Shown one piece after another: positions 6,956 to 38,281 of a stretch of DNA of 55,629 bases. Below the pieces are notes generated by a model that ran no database searches, was not told the origin of the DNA, and saw only the letters and a list, made by a program, of their open reading frames with translations. Where the stretch lies: NCBI GenBank assembly GCA_002068915.1, contig MWBE01000009.1, positions 1 through 55,629 on the forward strand. The letters run 5' to 3'. The stretch's first letter is position 1. The number at the start of each line of letters is the position of its first letter. The DNA is from Parcubacteria group bacterium ADurb.Bin326 (GTDB taxonomy: Bacteria; Patescibacteriota; Patescibacteriia; 2-01-FULL-39-33). The position numbers and the translations under genes are program-made.

Positions 6956-7174
6956 TTATATTAATTCATTAATATTTTTCTTATACATTTTAGCGAACGC
7001 CTTAAGCTCAATAATATCAAGACGATATGACCCCGATTCGACTCGGGAAATATAAGATTGCGGCCGCTTTATCTTCTTAGCCACCTCAATCTGTTTCAAG
7101 CCAGCATCAAGTCGGGCTTGCCGTAATTTCCTAATAAATTCGGCATATTCTTTTGTCCAAACCGTCTTACTCAT
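6956..7174 (-). CDS. XRE-family helix-turn-helix regulator
   Basis: LRQARLDAGLKQIEVAKKIKRPQSYISRVESG is a canonical Cro/C1 HTH. 72 aa. Confidence 0.85.
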   Translation of the reverse strand: MSKTVWTKEYAEFIRKLRQARLDAGLKQIEVAKKIKRPQSYISRVESGSYRLDIIELKAFAKMYKKNINELI

Positions 7175-7333
7175 ATAATAGTATTATATATCCGAAAAAT
7201 CTATATCTAAAATCTGGATATAATATTTTTATTGTGATACTATATAAGGGAGTGCCGTTTGCGCGCGCACGGGAGGGCGGGGCAAGCGCACTTAAAATCT
7301 ACGGGCGGCGCCCCGATGCCCTAAGGCATCGGT

Positions 7334-7545
7334 CGAAAAATCGGCGCCGGCCAGGAAAAAGCATTTTTAGATTTGGGCTTCAAGGCCGTGGCGGGCGGGC
7401 AAAAATTCCTTCCCCCCCAACCCCCAGTCATTTTTTGCCCGCATTCCGCCACGGCCTTAAAAAATTTGGTTTGGAATTTTGGAAAATAAGAAAAAACTTA
7501 AGTTTTTCCTTTAAAATAGGTTCGAGCTTCGTTTAGGAGCTTCGA
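7334..7545. repeat. IR-A right arm
   Basis: Reverse complement of 3464..3676. Directly contiguous with the recombinase 3'-end copy (7543..7701). Confidence 0.9.
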
Positions 7546-7707
7546 CATAAAACAACTTTCCAAAAATTTCGTTTTTTGTTCGCGCCCTTCAGGCGCGAGC
7601 TTAGTGATTTCTTCCCCCAATTTTTCTTTTAATTCAGCCAAGAATTTAAAATCAGAATTCCAATCCCACCCGACTTTCCGCCCCCAGAGGCGGCGGTTCG
7701 TAATCAT
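7498..7707 (-). pseudogene. orphan 3'-end fragment of a serine recombinase gene (IR-B inner arm, 7543..7701)
   Basis: Encodes ...NRRLWGRKVGWDWNSDFKFLAELKEKLGEEITKLAPEGREQKTKFLESCFMS, identical but for one residue to the last 53 aa of the 7853..9369 product. 159 nt with 1 mismatch to the reverse complement of 9205..9363. Confidence 0.9.
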
Positions 7708-7813
7708 TTCGCTTTTGAGATAATTGTGGTCTCAAACGCGGAATGATAGCCGGCTAATGCCGGCACCGTTTCTTTTCACCGCCTCGCCTTAAAGCGAGGC
7801 GACAAAGCCACGC

Positions 7814-7839
7814 TACATAACGTGCTACGTAACAAAAAA
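7814..7839 (+). promoter_or_regulatory. second copy of the TAC(A/G)TAAC(G/A)TGCTACGTAACAAAAAAT module, 13 nt upstream of the recombinase ATG
   Basis: Hand alignment with the reverse strand of 4777..4802. Confidence 0.5.
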
Positions 7840-20630: not shown

Positions 20631-21410
20631 TTATTGAGTTAGGATTTTATACCCATCCTTAGTGACAGCAATCGTATGCTCAAAATGGGCCGACAAAGAA
20701 CCATCGGCAGTGACTATTGTCCAGCCATCATCCAAAGTTTCTACGGGCCAATCACCAATATTAACCATCGGCTCTAATGCCAAAACCATGCCATCTTCAA
20801 GAACAACATCACGCACTCCGGGACTGGGCCATTGGTTGGGCACCTGGGGGTCTTCGTGCGCGGCAAAACCAACGCCGTGACCACAAAGCTGTTTGACTCC
20901 GGAAAAACCGTTACGCACAACTACGGCATCAATTGCTTTGGCAATGTCAGACAATTTCCTGCCGGGCTTAATTTTTTTTATGCCAGCCATTAACGCTTCT
21001 TTGGTAACTTTTAATAATTTTTTTACCTCGGGAGAAACTTTACCAATACCTACGCTTATCGCCATATCAGTATACAGGCCTTTATACTTTAGGCCACAAT
21101 CAAATCCGACAATGTCCCCTTCTTCCAAAACTCGAGAGTCATCGGGTATGCCATGAACCACTTCATCGTTGACTGAAACGCACAAAGCGGCCGGATAGAC
21201 GTGCTCTGCCCAAGCAGCTTTGTAGCCCTTAAAACTGGGGACGCCTCCGTATCCTTTTATCAATTTCTCCGCTAAAGCATTTAGTTCTCCGGTGGTTGTT
21301 CCTGGTTTGGCATTTCTAATAACTTCAGCCAAAACTTTAGACAAAATTTTTCCGCCCTCAGCCAAAATAGCTATTTGTTCTTCGGTCTTAAATTTGATCA
21401 TAATAAGCAT
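20631..21410 (-). CDS. map: type I methionine aminopeptidase
   Basis: VHGIP..D..GDIV..D...Y.G...D and HGVG..HE motifs. Confidence 0.93.
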   Translation of the reverse strand: MLIMIKFKTEEQIAILAEGGKILSKVLAEVIRNAKPGTTTGELNALAEKLIKGYGGVPSFKGYKAAWAEHVYPAALCVSVNDEVVHGIPDDSRVLEEGDIVGFDCGLKYKGLYTDMAISVGIGKVSPEVKKLLKVTKEALMAGIKKIKPGRKLSDIAKAIDAVVVRNGFSGVKQLCGHGVGFAAHEDPQVPNQWPSPGVRDVVLEDGMVLALEPMVNIGDWPVETLDDGWTIVTADGSLSAHFEHTIAVTKDGYKILTQ

Positions 21411-21470: not shown

Positions 21471-21525
21471 GAAGCTATTGAATTGGGATTTAAATTCAGG
21501 ATCGCACCTTACGGAAAGGAGTCGA

Positions 21526-21792
21526 ATGATGCTAATGCAACCTCACCGCGAACATCGGGGACACCTGGACAAGCAGAGGCGGTCGCGCCTTGAGCGACTG
21601 TTAGCCGGCCACATTATTTTCTGTGGCGACCGTACCAAAACAGATGAGCGCGAAGTCGCCAGACTCAAACAGCGCACAACCAAGTGGCTTATTGACAACC
21701 ATTGGCCGGCATTGATTGAGGCCGAGGAAGATTTGGCGGTTGTCGCGAGAATACAAGAGAGCTTCGGCGACAGCCGCTTCAGAATCGGCTAA
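21526..21792 (+). CDS. GC-rich orphan hypothetical protein (88 aa), one of four plus-strand coding features in the window (with rpmB, the recombinase pseudogene and the ncRNA candidate)
   Basis: AAAGGAG 6 nt before ATGATG (21526). 40/60 and 32/60 G+C in lines 21541-21660. Own promoter and terminator. Confidence 0.55.
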   Translation: MMLMQPHREHRGHLDKQRRSRLERLLAGHIIFCGDRTKTDEREVARLKQRTTKWLIDNHWPALIEAEEDLAVVARIQESFGDSRFRIG

Positions 21793-21834
21793 CTCCCCCG
21801 ATCTATTCAAGTCTATTCAAGCAAAAACCTCGCA

Positions 21835-21877
21835 CAAAAAAGCCCCGGTCTTAACTGACTCGGGGCCTCATTTTTTT
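21835..21877. terminator. bidirectional terminator between the orphan gene (+) and adk (-)
   Basis: GCCCCG...CGGGGC stem flanked by A6 and T7 runs. Confidence 0.7.
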
Positions 21878-21883
21878 AAGGGT

Positions 21884-22561
21884 TTATTTCCAGCCAACTT
21901 TACTACGTAGATCATCAACCATCTGCCTAACAATCTGATAATAAACTTCTTCAATGTGTTGTTCACCGTCAATTTCTTTAAGCATTCCCTTGCTCCTATA
22001 ATACTCTACGATACTATCAGTCTCGCGATGATAAATATCCAACCTTGATTGGACTGTCTCCGGTTTGTCATCATCACGCTGGAATAATGGTTCGCCGCAA
22101 GTATCGCAGATTGTTGGATTTTTAGGCGGAGAATATTTCAAATGCCAAGTATGTCCGTTCTTGCAAACACGGCGTCCACTCATGCGCTCGATGATAATCT
22201 CGTCAGTAACTTTTATTAAGAAGACGTAATCAATATCGGCAGCAGAGTCTAAAAATTGCGCCTGCTCCAAAGTTCGAGGAAAACCATCCATGGCATAACC
22301 GAATTTGCAGTCCTCACCCTTGATCCTTTCTGCCACCAATTTATTAACTAACTCGGTTGGCACCAACTTGCCGTTATCCATATAATCTCTGACTTCGGCT
22401 GACATTGGATGACTGGTATCGGACTTAATAGCATGAAGTATTACTCCGGTAGAGATATGGGGAATGCTAAAAGTTTTTGCTACTAATTCGGTTTGTGTTC
22501 CCTTGCCGGAAACGGGCGGACCTAAAACGATTAACTCGAAAGGTTTTTCATTCTTGAACAT
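21884..22561 (-). CDS. adk: adenylate kinase (Zn-lid type)
   Basis: GPPVSGKGTQ P-loop. Lid CKNGHTWH...CDTCG. Confidence 0.93.
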   Translation of the reverse strand: MFKNEKPFELIVLGPPVSGKGTQTELVAKTFSIPHISTGVILHAIKSDTSHPMSAEVRDYMDNGKLVPTELVNKLVAERIKGEDCKFGYAMDGFPRTLEQAQFLDSAADIDYVFLIKVTDEIIIERMSGRRVCKNGHTWHLKYSPPKNPTICDTCGEPLFQRDDDKPETVQSRLDIYHRETDSIVEYYRSKGMLKEIDGEQHIEEVYYQIVRQMVDDLRSKVGWK

Positions 22562-32302: not shown

Positions 32303-33016
32303 TTATTCGGATTTTACTTCTTCAACAGAAGCTTCGACATTGGATGCTTCGGCGGATTCAGTTGCTTCAGTTGTCGCAACTTCTTCCTGTTTTTCATCAA
32401 CGGTTTCCGTGCAAATATAAACTAAGCCGTTTCTGGCTCCTGGCACCGCTCCCTTGATATATAAAATATTGTTGACCTCATCAATAGAGATAACTTTCAA
32501 GCCACTGATAGTAACCTGTTCATTACCCATTTGGCCGGCCATCTTTTTTCCCTTGAAAACTCTCTGGACTCCGCCAGCTCCAATAGAACCAGGCATTCTC
32601 AACTGATCTTTATGACCGTGAGTCTTAGGTGAACCATGAAATCCATGGCGCTTGACGACACCCTGAAATCCCTTGCCTTTAGATGTTCCGGAAACCTTAA
32701 CTTCATCTCCCTCGGCAAAAACAGCAACAGTAATAGTGTCGCCACGCTTGAGAGATTCTGTGTCTTCTTTTTTTACTTTAAATTCCTTAACTGCCTTAAC
32801 CGGAATCAAACCTTTCAAATGACCAGATAACGCTTTGCCGGTTTTTTTAGCTACTCCAAAACCAACTTGAACAGCATCATAACCGTCTTTTGACGATACA
32901 GACTTGACCTGAGTAATAACATTAGGCATAGCCAAAACAGCAGTAACTGGGATTACAGTGCCGTCTTCTCTATAAATCTGAGTCATTTCAATTTTCTTGC
33001 CTACGATGAACTTCAT
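32303..33016 (-). CDS. rplC: 50S ribosomal protein L3
   Basis: MKFIVGKKIEMTQIY...GKGFQGVVKRHGF.G. Confidence 0.96.
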   Translation of the reverse strand: MKFIVGKKIEMTQIYREDGTVIPVTAVLAMPNVITQVKSVSSKDGYDAVQVGFGVAKKTGKALSGHLKGLIPVKAVKEFKVKKEDTESLKRGDTITVAVFAEGDEVKVSGTSKGKGFQGVVKRHGFHGSPKTHGHKDQLRMPGSIGAGGVQRVFKGKKMAGQMGNEQVTISGLKVISIDEVNNILYIKGAVPGARNGLVYICTETVDEKQEEVATTEATESAEASNVEASVEEVKSE

Positions 33017-33718: not shown

Positions 33719-34903
33719 TTATTTGATAATCTTGGTTACAACACCGGCACCTACAGTATGGCCACCTTCGCGAATAGCGAATTTCATTTTATCTTCCATG
33801 GCAACCATCTTACCCAACTTGATCTTCAAGTTAATGGTGTCTCCAGGCATAACCATTTCAACACCTTCTGGTAATTCAACTTCTCCAGTAACATCAGTAG
33901 TTCTGATGTAAAACTGTGGCTTATAACCCTTAAAGAAAGGCTTATGGCGTCCGCCTTCATCCTTGGACAAGACGTAAACCTCGGCTTCAAATTCGGCATG
34001 AGGAGTGATTGAACCTGGCTTGGCCAAAACCTGACCGCGCTCAACTTCTTCCTTTTTAATACCGCGAAGCAATAAACCAGCATTGTCTCCGGCGCGTCCT
34101 TCATCCAAATTCTTATTAAACATTTCGATTCCGGTAACCACGGTCTTTTTGGTTTCTGACAAACCAACGATCTCAACTTCTTCATTCAATTTAATGGTAC
34201 CGCGCTCGATTCTTCCGGTTACTACAGTACCGCGACCTTCGATTGAAAATACATCTTCGATAGGCATCAAAAGTGGCTGATCAGTGGCGCGCTGTGGCTC
34301 AGGGATATAAGAATCTAAAGCATTGATAAGTTCAACGATACAATCACCTTCTGGGCCGGATGAATTTTCCAAAGCCTTCAAAGCTGATCCCTTGATAATA
34401 GGAGTGGTGTCTCCAGGGAATTCATATTTGCTCAATAATTCTCTGATTTCGGCTTCAACTAAGTCAATCATTTCTGGATCGGCCTGATCAACCTTGTTAA
34501 TAAAAACAACAATGTAAGGCACACCTACTTGTCTGGCCAAAAGAATGTGTTCTCTGGTCTGAGGCATAGGTCCGTCAGTTGCAGCTACAACCAAGATAGC
34601 GCCGTCCATTTGAGCGGCACCAGTAATCATGTTCTTGATGTAGTCGGTATGTCCGGGACAGTCAACGTGAGCATAGTGTCTCTTTTCAGATTCGTACTCA
34701 ACGTGAGTAGTAGCGATAGTAATACCGCGAGCCTTTTCTTCAGGAGCTGCGTCAATTTGGTCGACGCTCTTATTTTGGGCGGTGTAACCTCTGTTACCCA
34801 AAACAGTCAACATAGCGGCAGTCAAAGTAGTCTTGCCATGATCGACGTGACCGATGGTACCGACATTGACGTGCGGCTTATTGCGTTGGAATTGTTCTGC
34901 CAT
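33719..34903 (-). CDS. tuf: elongation factor Tu
   Basis: [19 protein letters not shown]...DCPGH.DY...NK.D. Confidence 0.98.
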
Positions 34904-35070: not shown

Positions 35071-35436
35071 TTAGTTTTCTACTGGTTCAAAATAGTATCT
35101 TTCTTCATCGACGGAACCTGCAGAGCGAAAATCATTTTCCCCAAATTTAGACAAATAATCTTCATCGGAGACTTCACCGATATCTTTGGCAAAATCGTAC
35201 TGGTCAATCGGCATTTCCCTGGCTTGCTGGGTATCTTTCCAAACTGCGATATCACGGTTTATTTTATCTAAAAGTTCATCTTCTGTCAATCCCTGAACCC
35301 CTGATCTGCCCAAAATTAGATCTTCATAATCACCCGCTGACATCAAAATAAAACCCGGATCACCATTTTCATCTAAAATTATTACTTTATCACCGGTTTT
35401 TTTAATCAAGCCGATAATTTTTTGTAGATTTGCCAT
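35071..35436 (-). CDS. hypothetical acidic protein (121 aa); N-terminus weakly Phd/YefM-like
   Basis: Intact ORF. KTGDKVIILDENGDPGFILMSAGDYEDLI resembles antitoxin-type beta-alpha N-termini, weakly. Confidence 0.45.
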   Translation of the reverse strand: MANLQKIIGLIKKTGDKVIILDENGDPGFILMSAGDYEDLILGRSGVQGLTEDELLDKINRDIAVWKDTQQAREMPIDQYDFAKDIGEVSDEDYLSKFGENDFRSAGSVDEERYYFEPVEN

Positions 35437-35613
35437 ATTTTAGCCTATTTTAGATATTTTATTATTTTTTTCTTAGAAAATAAAGAAAAAATGTCCTTAT
35501 TTTAGGGCTTCATTAAATAATGATAACGTTTAAAAAATAATTTGTAAAGGCAGGCTTTTATTGGCTATTTCTTGCCATTTATCGATAATTTGACCTATTT
35601 TAGGTTTTTCCAC

Positions 35614-35642
35614 TTGACATTGATTAATGGTGGGCGTAATAT
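35614..35642 (+). promoter_or_regulatory. near-consensus sigma-70 promoter TTGACA-17-TAATAT
   Basis: TTGACA 35614-35619, 17-nt spacer, TAATAT 35637-35642. Points away from all neighbouring genes into the GC-rich block. Confidence 0.65.
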
Positions 35643-35648
35643 CAATAA

Positions 35649-36082
35649 GGTTATCGGACCAATTCCAATCCGATATTAAATAGCTCCTTTGGTTCAGTCA
35701 ATGGTCGCCCTTCGGCCGGAAGCTGGACTTGTGTGTTCAAAACTGCAAAGGGGTGCTTCACCCCACAACAGGGAGGGTCAGGAAATGACGAGTAGTCCAC
35801 CGGACTGATTAACGAGCTTTTGGACGCTTCGGTCGTCGTCAAGGCGGCAAAAACGACGCTACAAATCTGCGAATCTGCCGCATCTGCGTGCGCGACAACC
35901 AGGTCTACCCCACGGCCCAAGGCCACTAAGGGAAAAGACGAAACATCACGTTTAGTCCGCGCACACCGCACCTTTTCAGTTTTTTTCAACCTCAACCCCA
36001 AGTCCGAAGCCAATGGGCAGTCGGGCGCAATCTATGCGGGCGTCAACCTCAACCAAGGATGGCGACCCGCTCTTTTCTTTTT
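35649..36082 (+). ncRNA. candidate structured non-coding RNA, family unknown (about 430 nt)
   Basis: 55-62% G+C by hand count versus AT-rich flanks. No credible CDS on either strand. Many stable hairpins. Own promoter and a stem (36036-36070) plus UCUUUUCUUUUU terminator. Strand assignment rests on the promoter and terminator. Confidence 0.55.
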
Positions 36083-36108
36083 AGATTATTTTTTATAATA
36101 ACAAAAAT

Positions 36109-36146
36109 AAAAGACTCGCGTTAAATCGCGAGTCTTTTATTTTATT
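36109..36146. terminator. bidirectional intrinsic terminator (fusA end / ncRNA backstop)
   Basis: AAAAGACTCGCG-TTAAAT-CGCGAGTCTTTT perfect 12-bp stem with T-runs on both strands. Confidence 0.8.
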
Positions 36147-36151
36147 AGAAA

Positions 36152-38281
36152 CTATTTTCTTTCTTCCTTGCCTTTACGTCCTTCAATGATCTTCATCTCA
36201 ACGTTTTTCGGCACTTCACTGTACTGCAAGAATTCCATACTATATGAAGCGCGTCCCTGAGTCATAGAACGCATTACTGTTGCATAGCCAAACATTTCAG
36301 CCAAAGGAACTTGAGCGTTAATAACCTTAACCGCGGCAGCTCCCGATCCTCTGTCTTCCATGGAATTAATGATGGCGCGGCGAGAATTCAAATCTCCAAT
36401 AACATCACCCATAAATTGCTCCGGAGTAACAACTTCTACTTTCATGACCGGCTCCAAAATTACCGGGGTAGCTCTCTTAGTGGCGTCTTGGAAAGCCATT
36501 GAGGCGGCAATCTTAAACGCAGCTTCAGAAGAGTCGACTTCATGATATGAACCATCATAGACAGTCACCTTGATGTCAATTAATCTGTAACCAGCCAAAA
36601 CACCACGATCCATGGCTTCACGAGCACCTTTTTCAATAGGCTTGATGTACTCCTTAGGAATAACACCACCCTTGACCTCATCAACAAATTCAAATCCCTT
36701 ATTGACCTCGGAGGGTTCAACGCGCAACCAGCAATGACCATATTGGCCACGACCGCCTGATTGGCGGACATACTTTCCTTCCGCTTCAGCTTTACCCTTA
36801 ATGGTTTCGCGATAGGCTACTTGTGGCTGACCGATGTTAGCCTCTACTTTGAACTCACGACGCATACGATCAACGATAATGTCCAAATGAAGTTCTCCCA
36901 TACCGGAAATAACGGTCTGGCCACTTTCCTCGTCAGTACGAACACGGAAGGTCGGATCTTCTTCAGCTAATTTTGATAAAGCCAAAGCCATCTTCTCTTG
37001 ATCGGCTTTAGTTTTGGGTTCGACAGCAATATCAATGACCGGATCCGGGAAAGTAATACTCTCCAAATGAACCGGAAATGACGGATCGGATAAAGTGTCT
37101 CCAGTGGTAATATCTTTGATACCAACAATGGCGGCAATTTCTCCGGCGTACACCTCATCAACTTCTTCGCGAGAATTAGAATGCATTCTCAAAATACGTC
37201 CAATTCTTTCCTTGTTGCCGGTGGAGTTATTTACTATATAAGATCCCGACTTCAAAACTCCGGAATAAACGCGATAGAAAACTAACTTTCCAACAAATGG
37301 GTCAGTAGCAATTTTAAAAGCCAATCCTGACAAAGGAGCGCTGTCATCAACTTTAATTTCAATTTTTTTCTCTTCATCGTCAACGTCTGAACCCAATGGA
37401 GGATCAATATCGATCGGAGATGGCAAATATTCAGCAACGGCATTAAGCATGAATTGAACGCCTTTATTTTTCAGGGCGCTACCACACAAAATTGGAACGA
37501 TTTTATTAGCAATAACCGCCTTACGCAAAGCCTTCTTTAAATCAATAACCGGGATTTCTTCACCAGCCAAATATTTTTCCATTAAAACTTCGTCAGTTTC
37601 CACAATTGCCTCGACTAACTTAGCGCGAAACTCCTTAGCTCTTTCTACTTCATCAGCGGGAATCTCGGACTCTTCGAACTTGGTACCAAGATCGTCTTTA
37701 TAAATCTCAGCCTTCATTTCAAATAAATCAATGATACCAGAAAAAGTTTCGGCAGCGCCGATCGGCAATTGAATAGGATGGGCATTAGAAGTCAAACGAT
37801 CATGAATTGATTTCAAATCGTTATAAAAGTTGGCTCCTATACGATCCATCTTGTTGACGAATCCCAATTTTGGCACGTGATACTTTTCTGACTGTCTCCA
37901 AACAGTCTCAGACTGTGGTTCCACGCCAGCAACGCCGTCGAATACGATAACGCCACCATCGAGTACGCGCAAAGCGCGCTCTACCTCAGCAGTAAAGTCA
38001 ACATGTCCGGGAGTGTCAATTAAGTTGATCTGGATTTCATTTCCTCCTAGCCATTCGGCATTAGGCCAATAGCAAGTGGTAGCGGCTGAGGTGATAGTAA
38101 TACCGCGTTCACGTTCCTGCTCCATCCAGTCCATGGTAGCTTCGCCTTCATGCACTTCACCGGTTTTATGTTTTTTACCGGTGTAGAAAAGTACGCGCTC
38201 AGATACGGTAGTTTTGCCGGCATCAATGTGGGCGATAATACCAATATTTCTGATACGCTCTAAAGGTGTCTTACGGGGCAT
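36152..38281 (-). CDS. fusA: elongation factor G
   Basis: [16 protein letters not shown]...DTPGHVDF...NKMD. 709 aa. Confidence 0.98.

Follow-up and report, generated by a model that had tools for sequence, protein, structure and literature searches.

A candidate accessory cassette for a structured noncoding RNA downstream of fusA in uncultured Patescibacteria

What is the GC-rich sequence that separates fusA from the next gene of the str operon in an uncultured member of the Patescibacteria? The window that we analysed, the whole 55,629-nucleotide (nt) stretch of contig MWBE01000009.1 (Parcubacteria group bacterium ADurb.Bin326; GC content of the whole window 0.41), holds nearly all of its genes on the minus strand, and a GC-rich unit sits inside the 715-nt gap between fusA and a gene for a protein of 121 amino acids (aa). 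The sequence-only reading of this DNA had described it as an orphan plus-strand transcription unit, not protein-coding and of no known RNA family, lying between fusA and tuf; the unit is indeed next to fusA, but the 121-aa gene intervenes before tuf. We conclude, with a probability of roughly 0.6, that positions 35550-36102 are an accessory plus-strand gene cassette for a structured noncoding RNA (ncRNA) of about 435 nt that belongs to no known family and is under purifying selection in two lineages. Transcription signals, a lack of coding capacity, sequence constraint and strand-specific sparing of base pairs were all observed in this unit.

The cassette and its transcription signals

We set the limits of the cassette by comparison with related loci (designated L001 and so on), which were fetched through the adjacent 121-aa gene and are titled Candidatus Buchananbacteria, Falkowbacteria or 'Patescibacteria group'. 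Homology to relatives without the element (L001, L070, L132 and L138) breaks on both sides, at 35549 and at about 36103-36150, and the cassette was therefore taken to be 35550-36102. Its GC content of 0.50-0.56 over 35700-36100, compared with 0.24-0.32 in the flanking spacers, agreed with the composition reported earlier. The 715-nt gap and its sequence were identical in 10 of 11 independent assemblies (ENA, JGI, Logan and NCBI GCA_022705865.1), and the eleventh, L061, differed by three transitions, all GC-to-AT and inside the element, with none in fusA; an assembly artefact is thereby ruled out.

A consensus scan located the sigma-70-type promoter TTGACA-17-TAATAT at 35614-35642 on the plus strand, just where it had been proposed, with a putative transcription start near 35649 (Table 1). 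At the other end, the stem at 36036-36070, with arms GCGGGCGUC and GGCGACCCGC, and the U-tract UCUUUUCUUUUU that follows it were present as described. The perfect bidirectional terminator described downstream proved to be a 17-bp inverted repeat at 36104-36143; it is the terminator of fusA, and an equivalent was found in relatives without the cassette.

The anatomy between these signals was predicted from the minimum free energy (MFE) fold of the window sequence alone. All five local helices that had been picked out by eye (35653-35674, 35750-35764, 35777-35789, 35794-35806 and 35834-35858) could be found at those coordinates. The helix predicted to close the central multibranch domain contains a 13-nt inverted repeat that is 92% complementary, and it appeared both in the MFE fold and in the RNAalifold consensus. 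The description of the unit as highly structured was not borne out by the window sequence alone (z = -1.5); folding better than in shuffled sequence was seen for the 3' hairpin and for the copy in a related locus, L137. The terminator hairpin (z = -3.58, with 0 of 200 shuffles as good) was the sole local fold clearly above chance, the other four of five plus-strand sub-windows giving z between -0.07 and -1.34, and for the L137 copy the plus strand scored z = -4.60, equalled by none of 100 shuffles, and the minus strand -2.09.

Table 1. Coordinates of the cassette, its predicted parts and its neighbours, with differences between the window and L137 (MITE, miniature inverted-repeat transposable element; ORF, open reading frame; SD, Shine-Dalgarno sequence)
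Feature	Positions	Strand	Description	Compared with L137
Whole lineage-specific cassette	35550-36102	+	AT-rich 5' flank, promoter, GC-rich RNA body, terminator, short spacer	
Sigma-70-type promoter	-35 TTGACA 35614-35619; -10 TAATAT 35637-35642	+	17-nt spacer; consensus scan 10/12	
-35 and -10 hexamers				0/12 differ
17-nt promoter spacer				6/17 differ (35%); same length
Predicted noncoding transcript	35649-36082	+	~434 nt	~550 nt in L137
GC-rich body	35643-36035			27/382 differ (7.1%); ~4% in 5' half
5' hairpin	35652-35675	+	7-bp stem UAUCGGA/UCCGAUA, 10-nt loop; MFE	
Two-tier stem-loop	35691-35729	+	8 bp (35691-35698/35722-35729) and 6 bp (35702-35707/35713-35718); MFE	
Central multibranch domain	35739-35983	+	Closed by 16-bp long-range helix (35739-35756 with 35968-35983)	
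Small hairpins inside multibranch domain	35777-35789, 35793-35807, 35844-35881, 35888-35964	+		
Mini-ORF MTSSPPD	35785-35808	+	Seven codons; GGAGG (35772-35776) 8 nt upstream	
Hairpin	36002-36026	+	MFE	
Intrinsic terminator	36036-36082	+	Bulged 13-bp hairpin 36036-36070, U-tract 36071-36082	
Terminator hairpin, both arms and sequenced part of U-tract	36036-36070 (hairpin)			Identical
Terminator hairpin loop				3 substitutions and 1-nt insertion
Spacer	36083-36103			31% differ
fusA bidirectional terminator (neighbour, outside cassette)	36104-36143	both	Perfect 17-bp inverted repeat	19% differ
rpsL-rpsG-fusA	fusA 36152-38281	-	Followed by 715-nt gap	
Promoter of 121-aa gene and tuf (neighbour)	35520-35548	-	TTTACA-17-TATCAT; scan; back-to-back with cassette promoter	
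121-aa gene	35071-35436	-	Between gap and tuf	
tuf	33719-34903	-	Followed by rpsJ and further genes	
MITE-like repeats in same gap of relatives	L005 5160-5200, 5570-5610; L015 5680-5740, 5830-5860; L020 5730-5800, 5860-5890			

Constraint and base-pair sparing in a diverged copy

The locus L137 (Logan SRR28423913), whose 121-aa protein is 98% identical to that of the window, carries a diverged copy of the element. As a neutral yardstick we used the four-fold degenerate sites of the flanking genes, which differed between the window and L137 at 31 of 89 positions in fusA (35%) and at 14 of 38 in the 121-aa gene (37%). The GC-rich body diverged about five times less than this synonymous rate. Both promoter hexamers and the terminator stem were unchanged, and this pattern of conservation is the footprint expected, at the level of sequence, of a working plus-strand promoter and terminator. 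The divergence of the spacer between the hexamers (35%) matches the synonymous rate, suggesting that the cassette dates back to the split between the two lineages, and on that basis the low divergence of the body would reflect selection. Invariant blocks lie between the differences (for example 35725-35765 and 35874-35909), and nine insertions or deletions (indels) of 5, 1, 99, 3, 10, 7, 3, 6 and 1 nt were counted in the body and terminator. The motif UCAACCUCAACC (UCAACC), which had been remarked on because it occurs twice, was indeed present at 35986 and 36043, but it was not kept in L137, where one copy was halved and the other altered. A probe with this motif recovered only tandem repeats of the hexamer in unrelated genes, and its complement was not enriched in the window.

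To relate these changes to the predicted fold, the structure was derived from the window only, blind to L137, and then mapped onto the alignment. Substitutions in L137 fell at paired positions in 10 of 30 cases, against an expectation of 16.1 +/- 2.5 (P = 0.011), and they broke 2 pairs compared with 7.6 +/- 1.8 expected when the same base changes were placed randomly (permutation, plus strand, P = 0.0014). The reciprocal test, in which the structure was predicted from L137 only, gave 3 broken pairs versus 8.3 expected (P = 0.006). The corresponding minus-strand tests gave P = 0.022 and P = 0.68, and the mirrored plus-strand structure gave P = 0.10, indicating that under these folding models the pair-sparing signal is specific to the plus strand. 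This signal was carried by changes between Watson-Crick and G-U pairs, which remain paired only on the plus strand; among one-sided changes the pair was kept in 8 cases and broken in 2. All nine indels fell in loops or unpaired stretches.

Individual elements showed how these differences were distributed. In L137 the 7-bp stem of the 5' hairpin was identical, with its loop shortened from 10 to 5 nt and carrying 2 substitutions, and GUCA-GGAAA-UGAC had become GUCA-GGAAAA-UGAC. In the two-tier stem-loop, U35698->C turned a U-G into a C-G pair and G35715->A turned a U-G into a U-A pair. The latter change fits the U35705-G35715 pair of the MFE fold and not a C-G closing pair, so that the cUUCGg-type loop proposed at 35710-35715 is not supported. 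Two of the single-nucleotide polymorphisms (SNPs) of L061, at 35708 and 35719, lie in this same stem-loop at unpaired positions. L137 retains the long-range helix, in which a single G-C pair has become G-U, and the insertions of 99, 10, 7 and 3 nt in L137 were all inside the multibranch domain that this helix closes, in loops or junctions. The 99-nt insert folds as a separate hairpin domain. This insert (935-1033, the minus strand of the L137 locus being the plus strand of the RNA) includes a T-arm-like hairpin with a 5-bp stem, UUCGG/CCGAG, and the 7-nt loop UUCAAAC; no tRNA was found in it by ARAGORN.

Known families, coding capacity and competing explanations

The sequence-only reading had named three outcomes that would speak against it, namely a match to a known RNA family, a conserved protein-coding homologue, or a lack of both conservation and a transcript, and it withstood all three. 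As regards RNA families, Rfam 15 at gathering thresholds found only a tRNA-Pro in the whole window and one weak tRNA match, in L015, among the loci of 12 relatives. With relaxed filters and E <= 10 over 35400-36250, every match was confined to the AT-rich terminator region, leaving the GC-rich body without any, and the L137 copy gave only chance terminator-type matches at E <= 10. At this same threshold neither the region nor the L137 copy matched the RNase P RNA models (RF00010, RF00011 and related models), and models for signal recognition particle (SRP) RNA and 6S RNA (RF00169, RF01854 and RF00013) gave no match. ARAGORN predicted no tmRNA in the window or in L137, and there was no Rfam match to tmRNA (RF00023). 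Models for OLE, GOLLD, ROOL, raiA and HEARO were negative with Rfam 15 on the window, the region and the L137 copy. A by-eye likeness to RNase P RNA, based on short strings such as AAGUCCGAAGCCAAUGGGCAG, was dropped, as no model matched and the order and strand of the strings were wrong.

The two long ORFs that had been noted in the unit, at 35651-36013 on the minus strand (120 aa) and 35820-36098 on the plus strand (92 aa), are present, and neither is a conserved protein. The 120-aa ORF found only itself among 1.84 billion representative proteins (full HMMER) and 5.8 billion clusters, and a word-indexed search with the 92-aa ORF returned zero protein matches; Pfam, PADLOC and PHROGs contained no matches for the cassette ORFs. 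Both ORFs were lost in L137 through non-triplet indels (5, 1, 10, 7 and 1 nt), the L137 substitutions were distributed over codon positions as 7/7/9 and 6/5/11, without third-position bias, and no three-base GC periodicity was detected. Gene callers had left the gap empty in all 10 public contigs inspected. The absence of an SD had also been offered as an argument against coding, and this is uninformative in a window where most genes lack one. Regions upstream of the window's genes are A/T-rich, with AGAGGA or AAGGAGG at only a few (tuf, rpsG and few others), so that a sequence with a strong SD stands out here as atypical or foreign. The only combination of SD and start codon on either cassette strand belongs to the seven-codon ORF MTSSPPD, which is still present in L137, where one codon differs synonymously (ACG->ACA) and 1 nt has been inserted between SD and AUG; conservation with a single change is not statistically significant.

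The third outcome concerns conservation, and here the diverged L137 copy, with its identical promoter hexamers and terminator stems and its spared plus-strand pairs, has to be set beside the narrow distribution of the element. Gene order fusA, 121-aa gene, tuf was kept in 58 species representatives, and the gap between the first two was 20-200 nt in most of them. Longer gaps in relatives have unrelated content (valS, a toxin-antitoxin pair, a patatin-like gene, MITE-like repeats), which identifies the gap as an insertion hot spot. Such inserts were seen in L002, L003, L006, L019, L022, L035, L045 and L058: valS occurs in L002 and L003, an apparent RelE/ParE-type toxin-antitoxin pair in L035 and a 273-aa patatin-like ORF in L006, alongside further ORFs of unknown identity. 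The MITE-like repeats, TGTCATTCC...GGAATCCAG and CCTGGATCCCCGC...GCGGGGATGACA, occupy the same gap in several relatives and are the source of spurious '...IPAKAGIQ...' ORFs.

In the 90% cluster of the 121-aa protein we distinguished four states of the gap. The window type carries the element and L137 carries its diverged form; in L132-L134 and L138 (121-aa protein 95-96% identical) the gap is short, measuring 255 nt in the first three and less in L138; and L069 and L136 (97-98%) have at this site a gene, on the other strand, for a Cys-rich protein of 112 aa. That gene (666-1004 in L069, 955-1293 in L136) is AT-rich, lies on the fusA strand and encodes a hydrophobic N-terminus and 11 Cys, and its product had no family matches. 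In the nearest species representative, L001 (EF-G 93% identical), a 207-nt AT-rich gap without the element is all that separates the fusA terminator and the conserved TTTACA-17-TAT(C/T)AT promoter of the 121-aa gene. The short gaps retain two colinear vestiges, GAGCTATTTAATAT (= 35686-35673, 14/14) and TAAAATAAGTCAAATTAT (= 35602-35585, 17/18), as if this type had arisen through a deletion that took away the promoter, the 5' hairpin and all of the body. Most probably the common ancestor of this small group acquired the element, which two lineages then kept; a third deleted it, and in a fourth something else took its place. It is missing at this locus in L001, L070, L132-L134, L138, L069 and L136.

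Searches for further copies and for an origin of the cassette gave the following results. No second copy of the element was found in the window or in about 140 related loci (BLAST and nhmmer), and the EF-G 90% cluster added just one more identical copy. A JGI metagenome matched by 20-mer had the element on one contig only, a metagenome 20-mer scan returned the same locus and one chance match, seven viral k-mer scans gave chance matches only, and BLAST against phages and plasmids matched only the AT-rich terminator tail. As for a mobile element (a MITE or a remnant of an insertion sequence), the end-to-end inverted and direct repeats were AT-rich low-complexity sequence only. A 14-nt direct repeat (35549-35562 and 36128-36141) was rejected as a target-site duplication, since it does not abut the right end of the cassette; its left copy resembles sequence upstream of the 121-aa-gene promoter in cassette-less relatives. 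A remnant of the genes found in relatives' gaps (valS etc.) was likewise rejected, there being no tblastn match.

Several of these results weigh against a selected ncRNA. The element is dispensable, being reduced to vestiges in L132-L134 and L138, exchanged for a protein gene in L069 and L136 and absent from the nearest representatives. Nor is it conserved across the Candidate Phyla Radiation (CPR), its range being limited to a few lineages whose neighbouring gene is about 95% or more identical. The scans of public collections by exact 18-29-mers and by phage and plasmid BLAST recovered no homologue outside this locus, although more distant ones may exist, given that the scans of public collections used exact patterns. 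The evidence base is one diverged homologue and a variant with three SNPs, and among these three distinct sequences 0 of 122 pairs changed on both sides, so that there is no true covariation. The fold of the whole unit in the window copy was near that of shuffled sequences (z = -1.48 on the plus strand, -0.67 on the minus strand). Finally, the low divergence could stem in part from the two lineages having exchanged the cassette more recently. Much of this would also be found if the cassette were non-functional DNA, foreign or scrambled, that was acquired GC-rich and is slowly decaying at a hot spot, its likeness in the window and L137 being due to recent exchange. The unrelated inserts in the gap of many lineages, the lack of the element in the closest species representatives, its loss or replacement in sister lineages, the weak fold of the window copy and the direction of all three L061 SNPs are in keeping with that explanation, as is the outcome of surveys of GC-rich intergenic regions (IGRs), most of which end as ORFs, unnamed or low-ranking candidates (PMC11109978). 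However, divergence across the cassette is heterogeneous as function predicts, from 35% in the promoter spacer through 7% in the body to 0% in the hexamers, with variable loops and invariant stems; the spacer has moved at the flanking synonymous rate, arguing for a cassette as old as the split; and pairs on the plus strand, not those on the minus strand, were spared by substitutions and all indels avoided stems. We therefore regard non-functional DNA as unlikely.

A protein or peptide gene, for which the RNA would be the mRNA of the 120-aa, 92-aa or MTSSPPD product, could call upon the long ORFs open on both strands, the 120-aa ORF having been called by a gene caller on 2 contigs, the irrelevance of a missing SD in this genome, and the good SD and conserved codons of MTSSPPD. 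That the long ORFs have neither homologues nor a counterpart in L137, nor codon-position bias, GC periodicity or family matches, makes this very improbable, and MTSSPPD, which covers 24 of about 434 constrained nt and has one substitution, cannot explain the remaining conservation. It is somewhat less improbable, though still doubtful, that the cassette acts in cis, with convergent transcription or the RNA modulating 3'-end termination or stability of fusA, or with the promoter pair tuning the promoter of the 121-aa gene and tuf. The unit and fusA are convergent and have the bidirectional terminator in common, the promoter of the unit stands about 66 bp back-to-back from the TTTACA-17-TATCAT promoter, and the 7-nt GGUCGCC (35703-35709) is complementary to the 3' arm of the unit's own terminator. 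This last complementarity, which had been suggested as a long-range pairing, exists but is within chance expectation and invariant in L137; relatives express the same operon without the cassette; such a role does not need about 430 nt of constrained, structure-sparing sequence; and antisense overlap with fusA is not expected, since the cassette's own terminator precedes that of fusA. A housekeeping RNA (RNase P RNA, tmRNA, SRP or 6S RNA) diverged beyond the Rfam models has effectively been refuted: RNase P RNA and tmRNA have a comparable length (about 435 nt here) and GC-richness, but two diverged copies matched no model at E <= 10, ARAGORN was negative, the look-alike strings were in the wrong order and on different strands, and an essential RNA would not be expected to vanish, shrink to vestiges or be swapped at this locus in lineages about 95-98% identical in the neighbouring gene.

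We thus favour the accessory ncRNA cassette. According to this model, an ancestor of a small Buchananbacteria-like group of Patescibacteria would have received the cassette at a hypervariable spot that is bounded by the terminator of fusA and the promoter after it, and the cassette would have been kept under purifying selection in two lineages and deleted or replaced in their sisters. Transcription would start near 35649 from the sigma-70-type promoter, the RNA would fold into the 5' hairpin, the two-tier stem-loop and the large multibranch domain closed by the 16-bp long-range helix, and transcription would stop at the hairpin and U-tract of its own terminator (36036-36082), with the bidirectional terminator of fusA as a back-stop. 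The length of this presumed RNA, the closed multibranch architecture, the tolerated extra hairpin domain and the long invariant blocks lead us to infer a trans-acting role that would depend on the fold, such as binding a protein or serving as a scaffold, and not on a short seed. A further idea, which we hold to be a long shot, is that it represents a new class of large structured RNA (a ribozyme or the scaffold of a ribonucleoprotein), mobile as a unit of promoter, RNA and terminator and functionally interchangeable with the small, secreted Cys-rich protein cassette found at this site in sister strains, both being strain-specific accessory factors for an episymbiotic lifestyle (host interaction or defence).

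Bacterial ncRNAs of more than about 400 nt with complex folds are rare, and the known large examples (RNase P RNA, tmRNA, group I and II introns, OLE, ROOL, GOLLD and HEARO) have repaid study. Genomes of Patescibacteria/CPR are tiny, with little space for useless DNA, and to our knowledge almost nothing has been established about their regulatory and structural RNAs. An RNA-only cassette that lies within the most conserved operon cluster of the genome and shows about five-fold constraint, and yet is swapped among near-identical relatives, gives a concrete, testable handle on accessory RNA functions in this group. We consider it a solid candidate, not a discovery, for a new RNA family whose general kind is already known and whose distribution is very narrow.

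Neighbouring genes, other GC-rich islands and comparison with known systems

At least 58 species of Buchananbacteria, Falkowbacteria, Komeilibacteria and related Patescibacteria have the 121-aa gene between fusA and tuf. Its product has an acidic C-terminus and an N-terminus with a weak likeness to PhD/YefM antitoxins (Pfam E = 0.0017, below the cut-off). The gene has its own conserved promoter, TTTACA-17-TATCAT, and lacks a toxin partner; in this clade it looks like a housekeeping member of the str operon that has yet to be characterised. The block CTTTACAAATTA...TAT(C/T)AT containing this promoter was kept in L001, L070, L132, L137 and L138. Strain SNPs cluster in tuf (33835-34523), at about 20 sites in L060, L062, L065 and L066 and at many more in L067, and an indel at the 3' end of the L3 gene (about 32348-32411) gives products of 237, 244 or 259 aa among near-identical strains, in most of which fusA has no SNPs; these tuf clusters and the L3 indel suggest recombination tracts or strain mixtures in those assemblies.

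Two other GC-rich islands were seen in the window. One (GC content up to 0.56; 21478-21877, plus strand) is antisense to the spc operon, between map- and adk-like genes on the minus strand for proteins of 259 aa (20631-21410) and 225 aa (21884-22561). An 88-aa ORF (21526-21792) lies in it, preceded by a strong SD (GGAAAGGAG), an uncommon feature in this genome, and the island has its own hairpin terminator (about 21838-21877). The ORF had no matches in Pfam, PADLOC or PHROGs, and the island looks like another foreign cassette, in this case protein-coding. The other (GC content up to 0.61; 7240-7470 and 7540-7830) has no ORF and adjoins an apparent small helix-turn-helix gene (about 6990-7175, minus strand). 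Its fold scored z = -2.64, with a long hairpin at about 7380-7460 followed by a run of short GC hairpins, and no credible Rfam match was obtained at E <= 1; a further ncRNA or a repeat element may lie here.

Salmonella Isr small RNAs (sRNAs) are encoded by horizontally acquired genes on genomic islands. The candidate resembles sRNAs of this type in being a stand-alone promoter-RNA-terminator unit at a strain-variable site, with non-host composition and with presence or absence in close relatives, but it is several times longer than typical base-pairing sRNAs and has a predicted multibranch fold in place of a seed and terminator. With RNase P RNA and tmRNA it shares size, GC content and independent transcription signals, and it differs from them in matching no model, in missing their conserved cores and in being dispensable in sister lineages. 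In general form the candidate is like OLE, GOLLD, ROOL, raiA and HEARO (the omega RNA of IscB), which are also long, GC-rich, multi-helix noncoding RNAs in AT-rich genomes (the candidate being about 435-550 nt) and have their own transcription signals, and the same GC-IGR logic would detect the candidate (PMC11109978). However, none of them matches it in sequence or structure, and these families have hundreds of representatives and strong covariation, whereas the candidate has two diverged representatives and no covariation; HEARO adjoins iscB and OLE is linked to oapA, whereas the candidate has no associated protein gene. By number of representatives it would rank among the 'low-ranking candidate' motifs of GC-IGR surveys (PMC11109978). 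The promoter and terminator footprints, the five-fold reduction in rate and the strand-specific sparing of pairs nevertheless make the case for function stronger than that count of representatives suggests.

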